A stretch of 64,000 bases of DNA from a virus (Duplodnaviria; Caudoviricetes). The notes below the pieces were generated by a model. That model did no database searches. It saw only the letters and a program-made list of their open reading frames with translations, and was not told the DNA's origin. The DNA lies in IMG/VR virus record IMGVR_UViG_3300018405_000011, one strand, 5' to 3'. The position numbers were made by a program, and so were the translations under genes. Below are positions 22,651 through 60,509 of the stretch, one piece after another (the first letter of the stretch is position 1; each line of letters opens with the position of its first letter).

Positions 22651-22678
22651 TTTCTAGAAAAAGTAAAACCTATATTAC
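22651..22678 (+). promoter_or_regulatory. Early (virion RNAP) promoter
   Basis: TTTCTA-N8-AAAACCTATATTAC; TATATTAC is the phiKZ early promoter core. Confidence 0.8.
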
Positions 22679-39240: not shown

Positions 39241-39301
39241 AAACATTTCTTTTTTATTTGTGTGCGGAAATCATGTGAACCAGATAAGAGGATTTATAAC
39301 C

Positions 39302-40180
39302 ATGACTAAACTTACCATTTCAGACAATGAACTCATGCAGGCATTTACTGGCTTAGGTGCTGAGGTAGACTACGCTCAGCGCATTGTCGAGTTCCGCGCG
39401 CAGATTGAAGCTATGGGCATTAACACGCCTAACCGATGGGCATGTTTTATCGGACAGTGTGCCCACGAGTCCGCGGGTTTTACTGTATTTGAAGAAAACC
39501 TATATTACAGCTATACCGCACTTATGAAAGTATGGCCTTCACGTTTTCCTAATGCGGCATCAGCAAAACCCTACCATCGTAAGCCTGAAGCCATTGCCAA
39601 TAAGGTTTATGGTGGACGTATGGGGAATGATACGAAAGGGGATGGCTATCTCTACCGTGGACGAGGTCCTATTCAGCTTACCGGTAAAGATAACTACATT
39701 AAAGCCGGTACAGCAATTCGCTTAAACCTAGTAGAGCAACCCTCCTTAGTCAGTGAAGACCCTGTCTATGGCATCATGGTAGCAGCGTGGTTCTTTAGCA
39801 CGAATAAGAAAGACGGAAAGTCTATCCTAGAATGGGCAGACAACCTATCGCATAAAATGGTTACTCGCATTATCAACGGGGGTTACCATGGGCTAAATGA
39901 CCGCATTGTAAAGTCAAACTTTGCCCTTTCTGTTTTCGGTATTGACGAAGGTCGATTTAAACGTCCACTTATCCGTCTGGGTGACCGCAGTGATGCTGTC
40001 CTAGAAGTACAGCGCTATCTAAAAGCCTTAGGTTATTTACATAGCGCGGATAAAGTATATGGCCCTAGAACCCAACAAGCCATTATTCAGTTCCAGAAAG
40101 ATCATGGTTTAGTGGCTGACGGCATTGTTGGCGGGACAACCTATTTAACCCTTACCACTCACGTACTACAAAATAAATAA
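39302..40180 (+). CDS. Endolysin: GH19 (chitinase/lysozyme-like) domain plus C-terminal peptidoglycan-binding domain
   Basis: FIGQCAHESAGF..FEENL.YS, YRGRGPIQLTGKDNY, INGG..GL.DR; C-terminal LGDRS.AV..VQ..L and DGIVG..T. ATG 39302 after GAGGA. Confidence 0.85.
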   Translation: MTKLTISDNELMQAFTGLGAEVDYAQRIVEFRAQIEAMGINTPNRWACFIGQCAHESAGFTVFEENLYYSYTALMKVWPSRFPNAASAKPYHRKPEAIANKVYGGRMGNDTKGDGYLYRGRGPIQLTGKDNYIKAGTAIRLNLVEQPSLVSEDPVYGIMVAAWFFSTNKKDGKSILEWADNLSHKMVTRIINGGYHGLNDRIVKSNFALSVFGIDEGRFKRPLIRLGDRSDAVLEVQRYLKALGYLHSADKVYGPRTQQAIIQFQKDHGLVADGIVGGTTYLTLTTHVLQNK

Positions 40181-51539: not shown

Positions 51540-51554
51540 GGTAGACTGATAGAT

Positions 51555-51588
51555 ACAGGGAGTAGCACTGCGCTACTCCCTGTGTTTC
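51555..51588 (+). terminator. Intrinsic terminator
   Basis: ACAGGGAGTAGC / GCTACTCCCTGT plus GTTT. Confidence 0.75.
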
Positions 51589-51612
51589 TATATTGTTTAA
51601 AACCTATATTAC
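51585..51612 (+). promoter_or_regulatory. Early promoter
   Basis: TTTCTA-N8-AAAACCTATATTAC. Confidence 0.8.
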
Positions 51613-51647: not shown

Positions 51648-52028
51648 ATGAACGCACAAAAAACATTTGAAGGCTACCATCCCGTCTTAGGTTACCGTTT
51701 AGTACACAACGAGCCCTTCTACCCATCATGGACGCTGGAAGTTATGGACGCGACCGTCACGGATACTGTGTCCTTAGGTTTACTAAGTGAAGGAAACCTT
51801 AAGGATGCCCTTCTAGCGTTTTCTCTAAAGTATCCAGGTAAGCAGGTTGCAGCAACCTCTATGGCTCGCCATCGTGCCGTGGCTTTGGACGGTGAGATAG
51901 TTAAAGAGCGTAAGTACGCTGACTTCTACCATGTTACAGATGACATCGAAGCTGAAGAAGAACGTATTTTCGACGGCATGTTACTGGCTGACCACGATGG
52001 CATGGGCGGATATCTGACAACAAAATAA
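51648..52028 (+). CDS. Hypothetical early protein
   Basis: ATG 51648 after AAGGTGA; first gene after the promoter. Confidence 0.55.
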   Translation: MNAQKTFEGYHPVLGYRLVHNEPFYPSWTLEVMDATVTDTVSLGLLSEGNLKDALLAFSLKYPGKQVAATSMARHRAVALDGEIVKERKYADFYHVTDDIEAEEERIFDGMLLADHDGMGGYLTTK

Positions 52029-52035
52029 TTTAACT

Positions 52036-52068
52036 TGGGAATAGGGCATATCTGCCCTATTCCCATTT
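52036..52068 (+). terminator. Hairpin, probable terminator
   Basis: 13 bp stem TGGGAATAGGGCA / TGCCCTATTCCCA followed by a pyrimidine tract. Confidence 0.7.
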
Positions 52069-52112: not shown

Positions 52113-52601
52113 ATGACTACAGTGGTACTACACAATAATAAACTTTATGCTGACCGTAAACGCTCCACCAACAGTTATTTTATCGAAGGTGATAAAATTT
52201 GCTTTCTCGATGAGAACACGGCCGTTGTATGGGCTGGCCCTGCTGGGATTATAGACCTCGTAACAACAATTGTAAATTCACCTAGAGAACCCGTCTTTTA
52301 TCCATCGCGTGACAAAGTGGTATCTATATTTTACTGCGTAAAAGGCCAATGTCCTGAAACATGGACAATCCAGCAGGACATGAAAAGTCATGAATGGTCC
52401 CTAGTTAATCGCTTTCGAATAGAAAGCAAAACCACTGGTTCAGGCAGTGGTTATGGATATGCACGTGGCGCATTGCTAGCGGGAGCCGATATTTTGGATG
52501 CTTTAGATATCGCAGTGATGTTAGATAACTATAGTGGTTTTGGGTTCGATGTTTTAGATTTAACCGATTTTACAATGACTAAAATTAAAGGAGCAAAGTA
52601 A
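52113..52601 (+). CDS. HslV / proteasome-beta-like Ntn hydrolase
   Basis: M-T-T start (Thr1 after Met removal), YADR, DKI, WAG, GSGSGY, AL.IA..LD..SG. Confidence 0.7.
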   Translation: MTTVVLHNNKLYADRKRSTNSYFIEGDKICFLDENTAVVWAGPAGIIDLVTTIVNSPREPVFYPSRDKVVSIFYCVKGQCPETWTIQQDMKSHEWSLVNRFRIESKTTGSGSGYGYARGALLAGADILDALDIAVMLDNYSGFGFDVLDLTDFTMTKIKGAK

Positions 52602-53122
52602 TGTTTATTTATGACGATAAAACCATTTACCTGTTTTCAGACACAATGTGCCCTCTAGGCAAAGAAACTCTGTATCCGATAGTACATGAATTCGAACGCG
52701 GCTGGTTACTTTTAGACCGAGCAGGTGCCCTTACTACGGCGATGTGTATCGTCGAAGAAATGCTAAAAACGAGAACGCTCGAGAACAAAGCAGTACAGAG
52801 CACCTTACACATCATCGACTGTCAGTCAACCTTTATCTATGTGCCGCGCCGTATTGACTTGCCCATTTATAGAATCATTGGCGGTAGAGCAGAAAACACA
52901 TCGGTTAGTATTGCTAACCCGGGCATCGGCGTACTACCAACAGAGCACGGAGAATACACCGACGAGATGATGGGTGCCCTTGCATACCACAAAGGGAATA
53001 TTCCAAAAACGTTAAAGGGCATCAATGGAAAGATGGGGTTTACTCTTTTACCTGGTATCGCATACCGAATGTCTGTAAAGAGTAATCAACGCGTCCTAAA
53101 GCATATCCGGAACTATAACTGA
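52601..53122 (+). CDS. Hypothetical protein, possibly a degenerate Ntn-fold paralog
   Basis: TAATG-coupled; IYLFSDT resembles VYSDT of the 53614 gene; no N-terminal Thr. Confidence 0.45.
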   Translation: MFIYDDKTIYLFSDTMCPLGKETLYPIVHEFERGWLLLDRAGALTTAMCIVEEMLKTRTLENKAVQSTLHIIDCQSTFIYVPRRIDLPIYRIIGGRAENTSVSIANPGIGVLPTEHGEYTDEMMGALAYHKGNIPKTLKGINGKMGFTLLPGIAYRMSVKSNQRVLKHIRNYN

Positions 53123-53140
53123 AGCATTAAGGGGGAGGGT

Positions 53141-53449
53141 ATGTGTAAAGAAGAGCATCGACACATAATCGCTTTAATAGGTGCTATACGCGATTCACAT
53201 CCCGACATGTTGAAGCTTTATATGGAAGGGCAGTGTTTTAACTTTGCTCAGATACTGAGAACCCAATTCCCTGGTGGTGAGTTCTGGTATTCCCATGTCG
53301 AGGGACATATGTACTATTTTTACAAAGGTAAATGGTACGATATCAGGGGAGTCCATCTAATGGAACCCATGGGCAGCAGTCGGTACAGTTTTCTCGATGG
53401 AGACCCAGCCCATCGTTGGGGCAGAAGGGACAAACGTAGACTGATATAG
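53141..53449 (+). CDS. Small protein with putative Cys-His-Asp triad
   Basis: YMEGQCFNFAQIL...GHMYY...WYDIRG; GGAGG RBS. Confidence 0.55.
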   Translation: MCKEEHRHIIALIGAIRDSHPDMLKLYMEGQCFNFAQILRTQFPGGEFWYSHVEGHMYYFYKGKWYDIRGVHLMEPMGSSRYSFLDGDPAHRWGRRDKRRLI

Positions 53450-53516
53450 ATAAGCTTAAATAATGCACGCTGTTACTTTATAGGGAGGTGTTAAAAATGT
53501 AACTCTTCCTTGACCA

Positions 53517-53524
53517 TATATTAC
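53517..53524 (+). promoter_or_regulatory. Early promoter core
   Basis: Intergenic TATATTAC, but without the upstream TTTCTA/AAAACC elements. Confidence 0.55.
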
Positions 53525-53542
53525 CCCCCTTAATTACTGATT

Positions 53543-53570
53543 AGGCAGGAATACACGTGTATTCCTGCCT
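53543..53570. repeat. Perfect 28 bp palindrome followed by a T-run
   Basis: AGGCAGGAATACAC|GTGTATTCCTGCCT then GTCTATTTTTT. Confidence 0.85.
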
Positions 53571-53613
53571 GTCTATTTTTTAACCCCCCCTCCTTTTTTA
53601 TAAGGTGATTTTA

Positions 53614-54237
53614 ATGACTACGATTCTAACAACTAAAGACCGTGTTTATTCCGATACGCAAATGGGTAATGGATCCATGGTTGCTAACGAAAAGGTCTTA
53701 AAATTTATTCCTATGACTGAAGGACGTATCGCTTATTGCTGTGGTACTGTTCCTAACATCATGGCGGCTATTTGTTTACTAGAGGACCCAGGGCGACACA
53801 AAGACCGCCTTAAGGAATCAATTACTGAAGTTACGACGTTACGCATTCTCCATTCCGATGGGTTCCTCGAAGCTCAGAAATTTACAAAGAATGATAAAGC
53901 ACCGTCCATGAGCCCATTATTATGGCACGGTTACTCAACCCATAAAGCTGTGGGGAGTGGCACGCCATTTGTAAACGAGTTTTATCGCATGGGCGGAATA
54001 GACCCTTTAAAGGCGATGGCTCATGCGGCTCGCTTTGATACCGCCACTGGGAGTAACTTTGTTAGTATTCCAAGACAGTGGAACAAAAATGTAGGTTGTC
54101 TACTTACTATACATGGCGAGGGGCGTAAAAAGGATAAAACTCTTTTACTAGAACATCCAGAGGACAAAAACTGGGCGCTGAATGTTCTTATGGGTGTCTC
54201 AGAATCCCAAGTATCTGTACTTAGCAGAAAACTATGA
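53614..54237 (+). CDS. HslV / proteasome-beta-like Ntn hydrolase with C-terminal extension
   Basis: ATG 53614 after AAGGTGA gives M-T-T-I; YSDTQ, NEKV, CCG, AVGSG, AM..AA..D..TG. Confidence 0.7.
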   Translation: MTTILTTKDRVYSDTQMGNGSMVANEKVLKFIPMTEGRIAYCCGTVPNIMAAICLLEDPGRHKDRLKESITEVTTLRILHSDGFLEAQKFTKNDKAPSMSPLLWHGYSTHKAVGSGTPFVNEFYRMGGIDPLKAMAHAARFDTATGSNFVSIPRQWNKNVGCLLTIHGEGRKKDKTLLLEHPEDKNWALNVLMGVSESQVSVLSRKL

Positions 54238-57996: not shown

Positions 57997-59382
57997 TTAC
58001 TTTTTAATAATGGTTTGCTCTGCACGGCGGGTGTCTAAGACGTCATTACCCTTTCTATTTATATAAAGAGGGAAGTTACAGAACGTAGCTAATGCGTTAC
58101 CCATGTTAATGGCCACTTCGCGCACTGTAGCGTGGCAATTGACCCCAGACCTGAGCTCGGCCACGTAGACCGCATTGTCAATCGGATACGACGCTTCTAC
58201 GTCGACTAGAGAACCCATAGGTAACATGTATTCTATGTCTTCGGACGGAATCCCTAAAGCACGTAACTGGCTAGCTGCGGCGTGGACTTCACCCAAGATA
58301 ACATTAACGTCATCATAAACGCCCGCATTAGCGAATTGCTCACGGTACCAACTATGCAAGGTACCTGCTTCCATTAGACTACGACGAATGTTCCCTTTAC
58401 GGTGACGGTTTAAATCACGGAAACCACCAAAGTCGATACTATAAGCAAAGCTAGCACGCCCATAGTGACCAATATCGTCTGGTAAACGAGCGTGTCTAGG
58501 GCGTTCCCACAACTTTAGGTCACGTGTGTAGCTGTCTAATCCATCCACATCTAAAGTGTTTAGATTTAGAGAGATTAAGCCTTCTGGTACAGAACCGTCG
58601 TCGTTTAATAGGAACCCGGAATGTTTTGTCAACCAGTCATTAGACGCAGCATCTTTTACAGTGAAAGAGCTTGGGTACTCGGCAAGCATTGCTTCTAGTA
58701 TATCAGATGCCATCTGACGAACTTCTAGGTTAGAATGATTTGCTAAAATACCGATGACCTGACGGAAGTTCTCTAAGTTACCATCCCATACCCCAACTGT
58801 TTTAAGCCCTGACGGTAACAAAGAACGACAAATATCGAATGAACGTGGGCGTACAGTAGCTTCCCATTTAGCATCACTCACGTCGTCTGGCTTTTCTAAG
58901 TTGGCCATTAGGGAATCATAAACACGGTCTAGTACACGGGTATACGTAGCCATAAGTATGTCAGTGATGCGTAAATATGTCTCTAGCGCATCTGGGTGAG
59001 CTTGAATGCTTTCTGGGATAACAACGTTCTCAGCAGAGAATGGAATATAGCGAGTGGACGATTCCTGACCTGCATAGAGTGGATTTAAGTTCTGTAGATG
59101 GTTGATAGCAATCATAGAAATGCCCGTAATGAAAACCTTGGAGCTTGAGCACTTGCCAATTGAGTCATGTCCGTAACCTATTAGGTATGTAGACATAAAC
59201 TTATCAGCGCCTTCGCGCATTACTTTCTCTAAGTTCGCTCTAGGCCCATCCTTAGAGCGGCTACATAAAGCAGACAACATTGCCGAGGCTTCAGCATTCA
59301 TGCCGTACTTTGCTGAATCCACAACAGTAATAGTTAGGTTCTTTGCTTCTTGATTAAACGAGTTATTTCCACTCATTGTCAT
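57997..59382 (-). CDS. thyX: Flavin-dependent thymidylate synthase, tandem-domain type
   Basis: GYGHDSI, QESSTRY, DICRSLLP (domain 1) and DFGGFRDLNRHR, YMLPMG, Y..ELRS (domain 2). Confidence 0.8.
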   Translation of the reverse strand: MTMSGNNSFNQEAKNLTITVVDSAKYGMNAEASAMLSALCSRSKDGPRANLEKVMREGADKFMSTYLIGYGHDSIGKCSSSKVFITGISMIAINHLQNLNPLYAGQESSTRYIPFSAENVVIPESIQAHPDALETYLRITDILMATYTRVLDRVYDSLMANLEKPDDVSDAKWEATVRPRSFDICRSLLPSGLKTVGVWDGNLENFRQVIGILANHSNLEVRQMASDILEAMLAEYPSSFTVKDAASNDWLTKHSGFLLNDDGSVPEGLISLNLNTLDVDGLDSYTRDLKLWERPRHARLPDDIGHYGRASFAYSIDFGGFRDLNRHRKGNIRRSLMEAGTLHSWYREQFANAGVYDDVNVILGEVHAAASQLRALGIPSEDIEYMLPMGSLVDVEASYPIDNAVYVAELRSGVNCHATVREVAINMGNALATFCNFPLYINRKGNDVLDTRRAEQTIIKK

Positions 59383-60509
59383 TTTCCTTTTTCTCTTAAT
59401 GATTTTAAAATAGTATTCGTTAACTCAAGGTATTCATCTGTCCCATAATTAACTACACGTGTTTCAGTAAACCCTTCTGGAAGCATTTCTGACGGAAGCC
59501 TTTCCCCTTGGAGTTTCTCCCCCAGTTGCTTTTCGAGGAAATAACTAATATTTTTATCTACATGCCAGTAGTCCAGAATATAACTTTTAGGCCATAGCAC
59601 GCGATAGTGTTTCAGGCGGCCTCTCGGTGCGATGGAAGTCCCATATTTAAAAATATTTTTACCTTGATAGGTTCCAAGGTAGATTAAATAAATGGCGGTA
59701 GTTTCTTTCTCATCATTGCATTTTTGGCACCCATATAGGTTATAATAACTCCGTGGTGGAATATTAAGTTTATGTCCGTAACGACACATTACCCAATGTG
59801 GAATCAGTTGCCCGAGCCACTCCTTGGATAGAACCTTAAACATGTCCCCATATAACGTATTCAGCTTAAACTGAAAATCATCAATTGTTCTGATGGTATC
59901 AGTATCACACATGCTACAACCATGGCCATTCAACAGGTTATAAACATGTTGTTCTCTCTGTCCATGAATGGGACAAACGAAGCTTATTTTTGAATCCGTG
60001 CCCATATATGTATTCTCTATAAACCTATACTTATCTCCGTGAACACTTTTAAGCTTACCATGGACAATACTAAACGGTATGATTCTATCACGATCACATG
60101 CCTCCTTTGAACATCTAGGGCAGCCGGTTGGCGACTGGAGGTGCGATAAGGGGGTTGCAGTGAACTCCCCATGTGTTTTGCAGACTAGTGTGATTTTAGT
60201 ATCCTGATTAATATAGTCGACGAGACTATAATCAAAAAGGTTTCCAAATTTCTCTTTGCTTAAACCGATGAACTCATTATTAGTTCTTTTAAAGTGCTGC
60301 CGTCGGACTTCAATACCGCAAGCTTTACATCCGGCTGGCTTTGTTTTTCTCGTGTGATTTCCAATACTCTGGGTGAAAGGGCCATGGTGTGGACAGAGTA
60401 TATTTACATGGTCGGACATACGATCGAAGTCAACAAGTGAATAATCGTATTTATCACCATGTGCCTTTTTTGCCCTTTCTAGGAAAAGGCTATATTTTAT
60501 GCTATCCAT
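59379..60509 (-). mobile_element. Free-standing putative homing endonuclease: four DUF723-like Zn repeats plus C-terminal GIY-YIG-like domain
   Basis: Four repeats of F...(H)GDKY.Y...Y......C..HG.....H....GC..C; AIYLIY...FKYG...R.RL; visibly more AT-rich than its neighbours. Confidence 0.7.

Follow-up and report, generated by a model that had tools for sequence, protein, structure and literature searches.

Proteasome-like protein families of phages have been catalogued by Fuchs et al. (2021, PMC8665760), whose survey includes the PPH type, proteins of ~140 residues that lack the second helix (H2) and are known from phages and, within host genomes, from prophage regions. HslV-like genes have also been described in Salmonella phage pSal-SNUABM-04, which encodes two of them (ORF1 and ORF116) and no HslU (PMC7823757), while gp116 of Erwinia phage RAY, assigned to the 'HslVU protease family', is an accessory protein that localizes to the phage nucleus (bioRxiv 10.1101/2023.02.24.529968). 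A comparable locus is found in a stretch of 64,000 nucleotides (hereafter the window) from IMG/VR virus record IMGVR_UViG_3300018405_000011 (Caudoviricetes), in which three genes, designated A, B and C, had been proposed, without database searches, to form an early cluster of HslV/proteasome-beta-like genes encoding a heteromeric, self-compartmentalizing protease or an enzyme that removes or adds protein conjugates. Their open reading frames (ORFs) were found at exactly the coordinates given in this original prediction. The analysis upholds one part of the proposal, namely two HslV/proteasome-beta-like Thr1 hydrolases without a full unfoldase, and speaks against the other, a three-gene heteromeric particle. 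The locus resembles pSal-SNUABM-04, by description and not by sequence, in that more than one HslV-like gene is carried by a jumbo phage without HslU; the comparison with RAY gp116 is likewise one of description, and the published text is ambiguous as to whether that protein is HslV-like or HslU-like.

Genes A and C both match the profile of PHROG 1040 ('peptidase HslV family'), a family that includes gp076 of Vibrio phage pVa-21 and gp078 of phage pVp-JHP1101, with E values of 4.5e-12 and 8.1e-13, respectively, and ~48 bits each. The same profile is matched by P0004, an orthologue of C, and by pVa-21 gp076 (pVa21_076; E 6e-42, 140 bits), while cellular HslV sequences score 66-90 bits, so that A and C are to be regarded as outlying members of PHROG 1040. 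In an alignment of 30 sequences (A4), comprising A, four prophage-type relatives of A, C, P0004 and 23 diverse HslV proteins, invariance is confined to the columns of the N-terminal Thr, Asp14, Lys28 and Gly111-Ser112-Gly113 (numbering of A), which correspond to Thr1, Asp17, Lys33 and G-S124-G of HslV. These catalytic columns are also unchanging among the orthologues of C, and the equivalent of Gly47 is found, by inspection only, in WAG of A and CCG of C. Both proteins begin with M-T-T and have no propeptide, as is the case for E. coli HslV (b3932). The profile matches and the invariant columns thus agree with the initial proposal that two of the genes retain the N-terminal sequence and active-site residues of HslV and 20S beta subunits. 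The lysines were correctly recognized only in part: an equivalent of Lys33 is present in both proteins, but in C it is K30 of 'LKF', invariant in four orthologues, and not K27 of 'EKV', which had been singled out and is not conserved. A family hidden Markov model (HMM) built without A finds A at E 1.5e-8 among the 78 ORFs of the window, and one built without C-type sequences finds C in the same set at E 1.7e-7.

Structure prediction points in the same direction. The ESM Atlas models are based on single sequences and are hence independent of the alignment-based homology call; that of A has a predicted template modelling score (pTM) of 0.81 and a template modelling score (TM) of 0.73 to proteasome beta, and that of C a pTM of 0.79 and a TM of 0.59. 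Both also superpose on many viral clusters of 145-170 aa. An AlphaFold 2 (AF2) model of A, computed from the A4 alignment, reached a predicted local distance difference test score (pLDDT) of 61, with good termini and a poorly modelled segment between residues 43 and 104. When this model was compared with the PDB by Foldseek, a check put forward with the initial proposal, a proteasome-beta-type fold was recovered, the top 50 matches all being 20S beta subunits; among the best matches in BFVD are proteins of jumbo and other phages, with Caulobacter, Serratia, Pseudomonas, Erwinia, Vibrio and Aeromonas phages represented. Sequence searches of the PDB with A, C and a profile of the 4-row alignment A1 returned nothing meaningful, and hhalign comparisons against A1 could not connect even E. 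coli HslV with the C family and therefore lack power. Judged by sequence and predicted fold, A and C are very diverged N-terminal nucleophile (Ntn) hydrolases of the proteasome/HslV fold with an intact catalytic set. The similarity between them is remote (BLASTP E 0.11), which indicates that they are not a recent duplicate pair, and they differ in charge, A being acidic with an isoelectric point of 5.7 and C basic at 9.0; the orthologues of C are mostly basic (~9), with P0004 at 7.8.

The likeness to HslV (ClpQ) comprises the M-T-T start, the catalytic positions and the fold; it does not extend to the features that define HslV proper. Neither A nor C matches the NCBIfam hslV model at E<=0.1 or Pfam PF00227 at E<=1, and both score ~0 bits on an HMM built from 31 HslV sequences, a model that is without power for these proteins. 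All 23 HslV rows of A4 contain the helix-2 'DWRTD' block, for which A, C and the prophage-type rows have no counterpart. HslV Lys28, which presumably contacts the HslU tail in the HslUV structures, is not conserved in A or C. An identification of the two proteins as true HslV was rejected, given the missing curated-model match, the missing helix-2 block and the lack of an adjacent functional hslU.

The nearest relatives of A (L094p, L095p, L126p and L128p) are proteins of 145-148 aa encoded in bacterial genomes, the match to the prophage protein L094p having a BLASTP E value of 1.8e-7, and a small profile detected further proteins of this kind in 5 of 401 Pseudomonadota genomes. The genes for L094p, L095p and L128p adjoin those for a terminase small subunit, a terminase large subunit and a phage lysozyme, respectively, while no phage gene was identified beside that for L126p. 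In the phage collection, tblastn with A returned nothing, and a word-index search found A alone; scans of IMG/VR with A, B, C and alignment A1 gave no relatives, and neither did megablast of the region against the phage collection. A shares with the published PPH type its short length, the lack of a propeptide, the Thr1/Asp/Lys/GSG set, its occurrence in a phage and the prophage relatives of 145-148 aa, and it differs in being ~20 residues longer and in having an unmodelled middle segment. In A4 it shows no counterpart of HslV H2, but residues 43-104 of its AF2 model have a pLDDT <50. A appears to resemble the PPH type, an assignment made from the published description and not from the reference WP_042125023.1. 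As a separate observation, two of the prophage PPH-type genes (L094:1507-1941 in genome G057 and L095:1504-1938 in G054) lie directly downstream of the terminase small and large subunit genes, respectively. They thus sit within the head-packaging module rather than with early genes, which may point to a role of this subtype in morphogenesis.

Gene C has orthologues in phages: P0004 is 54% identical, and pVa21_076 and pVpJHP1101_078 are 33-34% identical, the former 33% over the full length. A tblastn search of the phage collection with pVa21_076 found only the two Vibrio phages, and a word-index search with C found one relative. In C and its three orthologues the HslV/PPH core is followed by a C-terminal extension of ~50 aa, in which a P-R-x-W motif and a Trp farther on are invariant. 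This combination of a PPH-like core and a C-terminal region recalls the RPC type of Fuchs et al. (2021), which differs in having been reported only from Proteobacteria and not from phages. C thus seems to have an RPC-like layout, by the published description and not by comparison with the reference WP_140207863.

Gene order separates the two proteins further. In the nearest relative contig (L004), 70 bases separate the orthologue of w126 (64% identity), the first gene of the unit that contains A and B, from the orthologue of C (54%) downstream of it; A, B and the YunG-like gene that follows B in the window are absent between them. Synteny continues past C through a PNK-like kinase, ThyX, an HNH gene and BubE, and no other PHROG 1040 match was found in the examined first 11 kb of L004. 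The complete genome of Vibrio phage pVa-21 contains exactly one PHROG 1040 gene, the orthologue of C. The gene order in L004 and the single copy in pVa-21 together suggest that C is the copy of the lineage and that A, B and the YunG-like gene form an accessory cassette. The three genes that had been grouped as one cluster are thus not co-conserved.

Gene B presents a different picture. Its ATG overlaps the TAA of A as TAATG, a Shine-Dalgarno sequence (AAGGAG) is located eight bases upstream inside the 3' end of A, and its codon usage scores +0.195 per codon in frame vs -0.31 and -0.36 out of frame. B is a genuine gene, and its translation is coupled to that of A. It is also an orphan. A phmmer search over 1.84 billion representatives returned B alone, as did the word-index search; no match was found in Pfam, NCBIfam or PHROG (in the latter even at E<=10), and tblastn in the phage collection gave nothing. 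Its structure predictions are unfolded, with a pLDDT of 33 in AF2 run without an alignment and a pTM of 0.19 in the Atlas. The original prediction had drawn attention to a 'Y.FSDT' likeness of B to its neighbours and had cast B as a non-catalytic, alpha-type partner. This likeness does not exceed chance expectation. Aligned to A4 by hhalign, B reaches E 0.11, and a Smith-Waterman shuffle test against ten family members gives P 0.066; among the ORFs of the window, the family HMM places B at rank 33 of 43, and an HMM restricted to the N-terminal region places it at 9 of 67. B is not detectably related to the family, and no test able to find A and C indicates that it is proteasome-like, although extreme divergence might account for this result.

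The signals for transcription also divide the locus. The 8-mer TATATTAC is the core of a predicted phiKZ promoter, of which an extended form is described in 201phi2-1 (PMC7058600). It occurs at 9 sites in the window vs 4.1 expected, a number reached in 5 of 100 shuffles and hence not significant. The 13-mer AAACCTATATTAC, which by its sequence is an extension of the published phiKZ/201phi2-1 promoter consensus, is present in exactly four copies, all on the plus strand, at 22666, 35208, 39496 and 51600. The copy at 39496 falls inside the ORF at 39260-40180. Promoters had been proposed upstream of all three genes; A and B, together with w126, are preceded by the promoter-like 13-mer, but in front of C only the bare, non-enriched 8-mer core is found. 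With AAACCTATATTAC at 51600, A and B are plausibly early genes, read through w126. C is probably transcribed apart from the A-B-YunG unit, as judged by the terminator-like hairpin between them and by the 8-mer core alone upstream.

Considering these results together, the reading that we hold to be probable, if far from assured, is that A and C are two separately acquired and separately transcribed orphan Thr1 peptidases, of which A travels with B and the YunG-like gene as accessory material while C is lineage-wide, and that B is unrelated to both. The two proteins fall within the phage branch of the proteasome-like superfamily (PHROG 1040; group I in Fuchs et al. 2021). The Asp, the Lys and the serine of Gly-Ser-Gly would complete a proteasome-type active site around Thr1. 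Methionine aminopeptidase has a known specificity, on the basis of which the host enzyme would be expected to strip Met from Met-Thr-Thr in A and C and so expose Thr1 as the nucleophile, as in E. coli HslV. Each protein would most likely form a homo-oligomeric peptidase or amidase of its own, independent of an HslU-type unfoldase and its ATPase, and would act during infection on specific targets that are short or unfolded. A, B and the YunG-like gene would constitute a strain-specific cassette inserted between w126 and C, and B, if it is a partner of A at all, might serve as an unrelated adaptor, regulator or substrate.

Several points weigh against this reading. The AF2 model of A was computed from an alignment that contains HslV and so is not independent of the homology call, and because its residues 43-104 have a pLDDT <50, the loss of helix 2 is seen in the alignment only and not in a structure. 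The contig L004 begins 53 bases before w126, so A-like genes may exist elsewhere in that phage. The translational coupling of A and B permits a partnership between them, and a language-model lead connects B with the family, as 53 of its 100 nearest Atlas clusters carry PF00227 at a level of ~0.91, which is also attained by 4-10% of shuffled proteins. Finally, a literature search found no functional or biochemical study of PPH- or RPC-type proteins.

The coupling and the Atlas lead also bear on the most serious alternative, a two-protein unit of A and B in which B would be either an inactive paralogue that has diverged to an extreme degree or an unrelated protein serving A as regulator, adaptor or inhibitor, and C would act alone. 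Besides the TAATG overlap, the Shine-Dalgarno sequence inside A and the coding character of B, it can draw on the best hhalign alignment of B, which is in register with the N-terminus of the family and is not significant. A complex prediction for A and B gave a median score of 0.29 vs a mark of 0.32, with the fold of the partner uncertain, and is evidence neither way. Against such a unit, B has no homologue and hence offers no co-occurrence to compare, and the prophage PPH-type genes have no B-like neighbour; tblastn of B, the YunG-like protein and w126 against these prophage loci returned nothing. We consider this alternative unlikely.

Another possibility is that A and C use their Thr1 chemistry for purposes other than degradation, either as a sequence-specific, connectase-like ligase or transpeptidase or as an isopeptidase that strips off ubiquitin-like or other conjugates attached by host defence systems. 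The superfamily does include connectase, a monomeric ligase (PMC8665760), no unfoldase partner is present, and the short PPH layout may not support double rings. On the other hand, the S3/S4 helical insertion of connectase is not apparent in A4, and the neighbouring genes (thymidylate kinase, PNK-like kinase and ThyX) are unrelated to ubiquitin-like systems. Such a function of A and C appears quite improbable.

A further scenario would have A and C plug into, or poison, host HslU or ClpX, perhaps together with a phage-encoded AAA+ fragment. It had been stated that no AAA unfoldase is nearby, which is true within the window, but a gene for a ClpX/HslU-like AAA+ N-terminal fragment is found ~10.7 kb downstream of C on the contig L129. 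The locus spans L129:12843-13514, equivalent to ~64861-65532 in window numbering and thus just past the window end. The gene is preceded by its own AACCTATATTAC, the last 12 letters of the 13-mer. The first ~110 residues of its product carry a Walker A motif (GPTGSGKT) and a pore loop (GYVGED) and resemble ClpX (E 1.3e-20) and HslU (E 1.7e-16), both matches extending over ~105 residues. However, only the first 122 of the 552 positions of phrog_4339 are covered, and neither Walker B nor the remainder follows, whether in the gene itself, in the next ORF or in the +1 frame, which implies that the fragment cannot work as an unfoldase alone; it may represent a truncated or decoy AAA+ module. In addition, pVa-21 and pVp-JHP1101 keep the orthologue of C without a phrog_4339 gene, and A and C have neither the helix-2 block of HslV nor a conserved Lys28. 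An interplay of A and C with host HslU or ClpX is very doubtful in light of these observations. Similarly slim chances are given to a hetero-oligomer of catalytic A and non-catalytic B, in which B would be a diverged proteasome fold and which might, possibly with the AAA+ fragment, disable or rewire host proteolysis early in infection; if true, it would be the first viral two-subunit proteasome-like particle.

The least credible of all is a heteromeric self-compartmentalizing protease assembled from all three proteins, in which B would supply the non-catalytic, alpha-type subunit. The position of the trio on one strand within 2.1 kb, the A-B coupling and the embedding-level lead from B to proteasome clusters lend it some appeal. 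Against it, B is not recognizably related to the family, C stands without its two neighbours in L004 and is the sole copy in pVa-21, a terminator-like hairpin parts A-B-YunG from C, and A and C are too remote from each other to be recent duplicates.

The features of the locus, which we prefer to read as two independent peptidase genes, one of them within a cassette, are collected in Table 1.

Table 1. Features of the locus around genes A, B and C, in window positions except where a contig is named
Feature	Position	Strand	Remarks
Terminator-like hairpin	51551-51587		directly before the 13-mer AAACCTATATTAC
phiKZ-type early-promoter-like motif AAACCTATATTAC	51600-51612	+	exact 13-mer; upstream of w126-A-B
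w126, 126 aa, first gene of the transcription unit	51648-52028	+	64% identity to L004:54-434
Hairpin, perfect-looking, without T-run	52037-52065	+	between w126 and gene A
Gene A, 162 aa, predicted PPH-like proteasome/HslV-fold Thr1 peptidase	52113-52601	+	PHROG 1040 match
Gene B, 173-aa ORFan	52601-53122	+	ATG overlaps stop of A (TAATG)
YunG-like gene, 102 aa, last of the A-B unit	53141-53449	+	PF24591 E 6.6e-16; phrog_4814 E 8.8e-28
TATATTAC core alone, 8-mer	53517-53524	+	before gene C
Hairpin, 13-bp stem and T-run	53542-53571	+	between the A-B-YunG unit and C
Gene C, 207 aa, predicted proteasome/HslV-fold Thr1 peptidase	53614-54237	+	PHROG 1040 match
ClpX/HslU-like AAA+ N-terminal fragment, 203 aa	L129:12903-13514		~10.7 kb downstream of C

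The start of C is placed at the ATG at 53614, since its orthologues all begin with M-T-T, which rules against the GTG at 53605. No Pfam or PHROG match was found for w126, and the hairpin between it and gene A could be a processing site or an attenuator. The YunG-like gene, recognized by PF24591 and phrog_4814, accompanies A and B in the accessory cassette. Farther along, an HNH/DUF723 endonuclease gene next to ThyX (window 59379-60509, minus strand) is 92.6% identical to its counterpart in L004, whereas the flanking orthologues are 54-68% identical, a difference that suggests a recently exchanged, mobile homing endonuclease.

The source of the window is an uncultured freshwater jumbo phage of the phiKZ-like kind. 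The window is a ~63-kb fragment, estimated to cover 22% of the phage genome, and encodes phiKZ-type head and internal-head proteins; a longer contig of 215 kb is known for the phage that carries A, B and C. The DNA is identical to a region present in freshwater metagenomes of four studies, and as all metagenome contigs are 100% identical over the region, there is no polymorphism for selection analysis. A search of sequencing runs for the region listed no RNA run.

The practical value of the locus is modest, although the orthologue of C in the cultivable Vibrio phage pVa-21, gp076, would make a reasonable test bed for the class. Phage proteasome homologues (PPH, AAH and PHROG 1040) are widespread, especially in jumbo phages, and to this already catalogued family the locus contributes two strongly diverged members, an acidic and a basic one. 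It further shows such genes being gained and lost in accessory cassettes rather than kept in fixed multi-subunit operons. This turnover speaks against a phage "mini-proteasome" and in favour of peptidases that are encoded by single genes and may be specific for particular targets.

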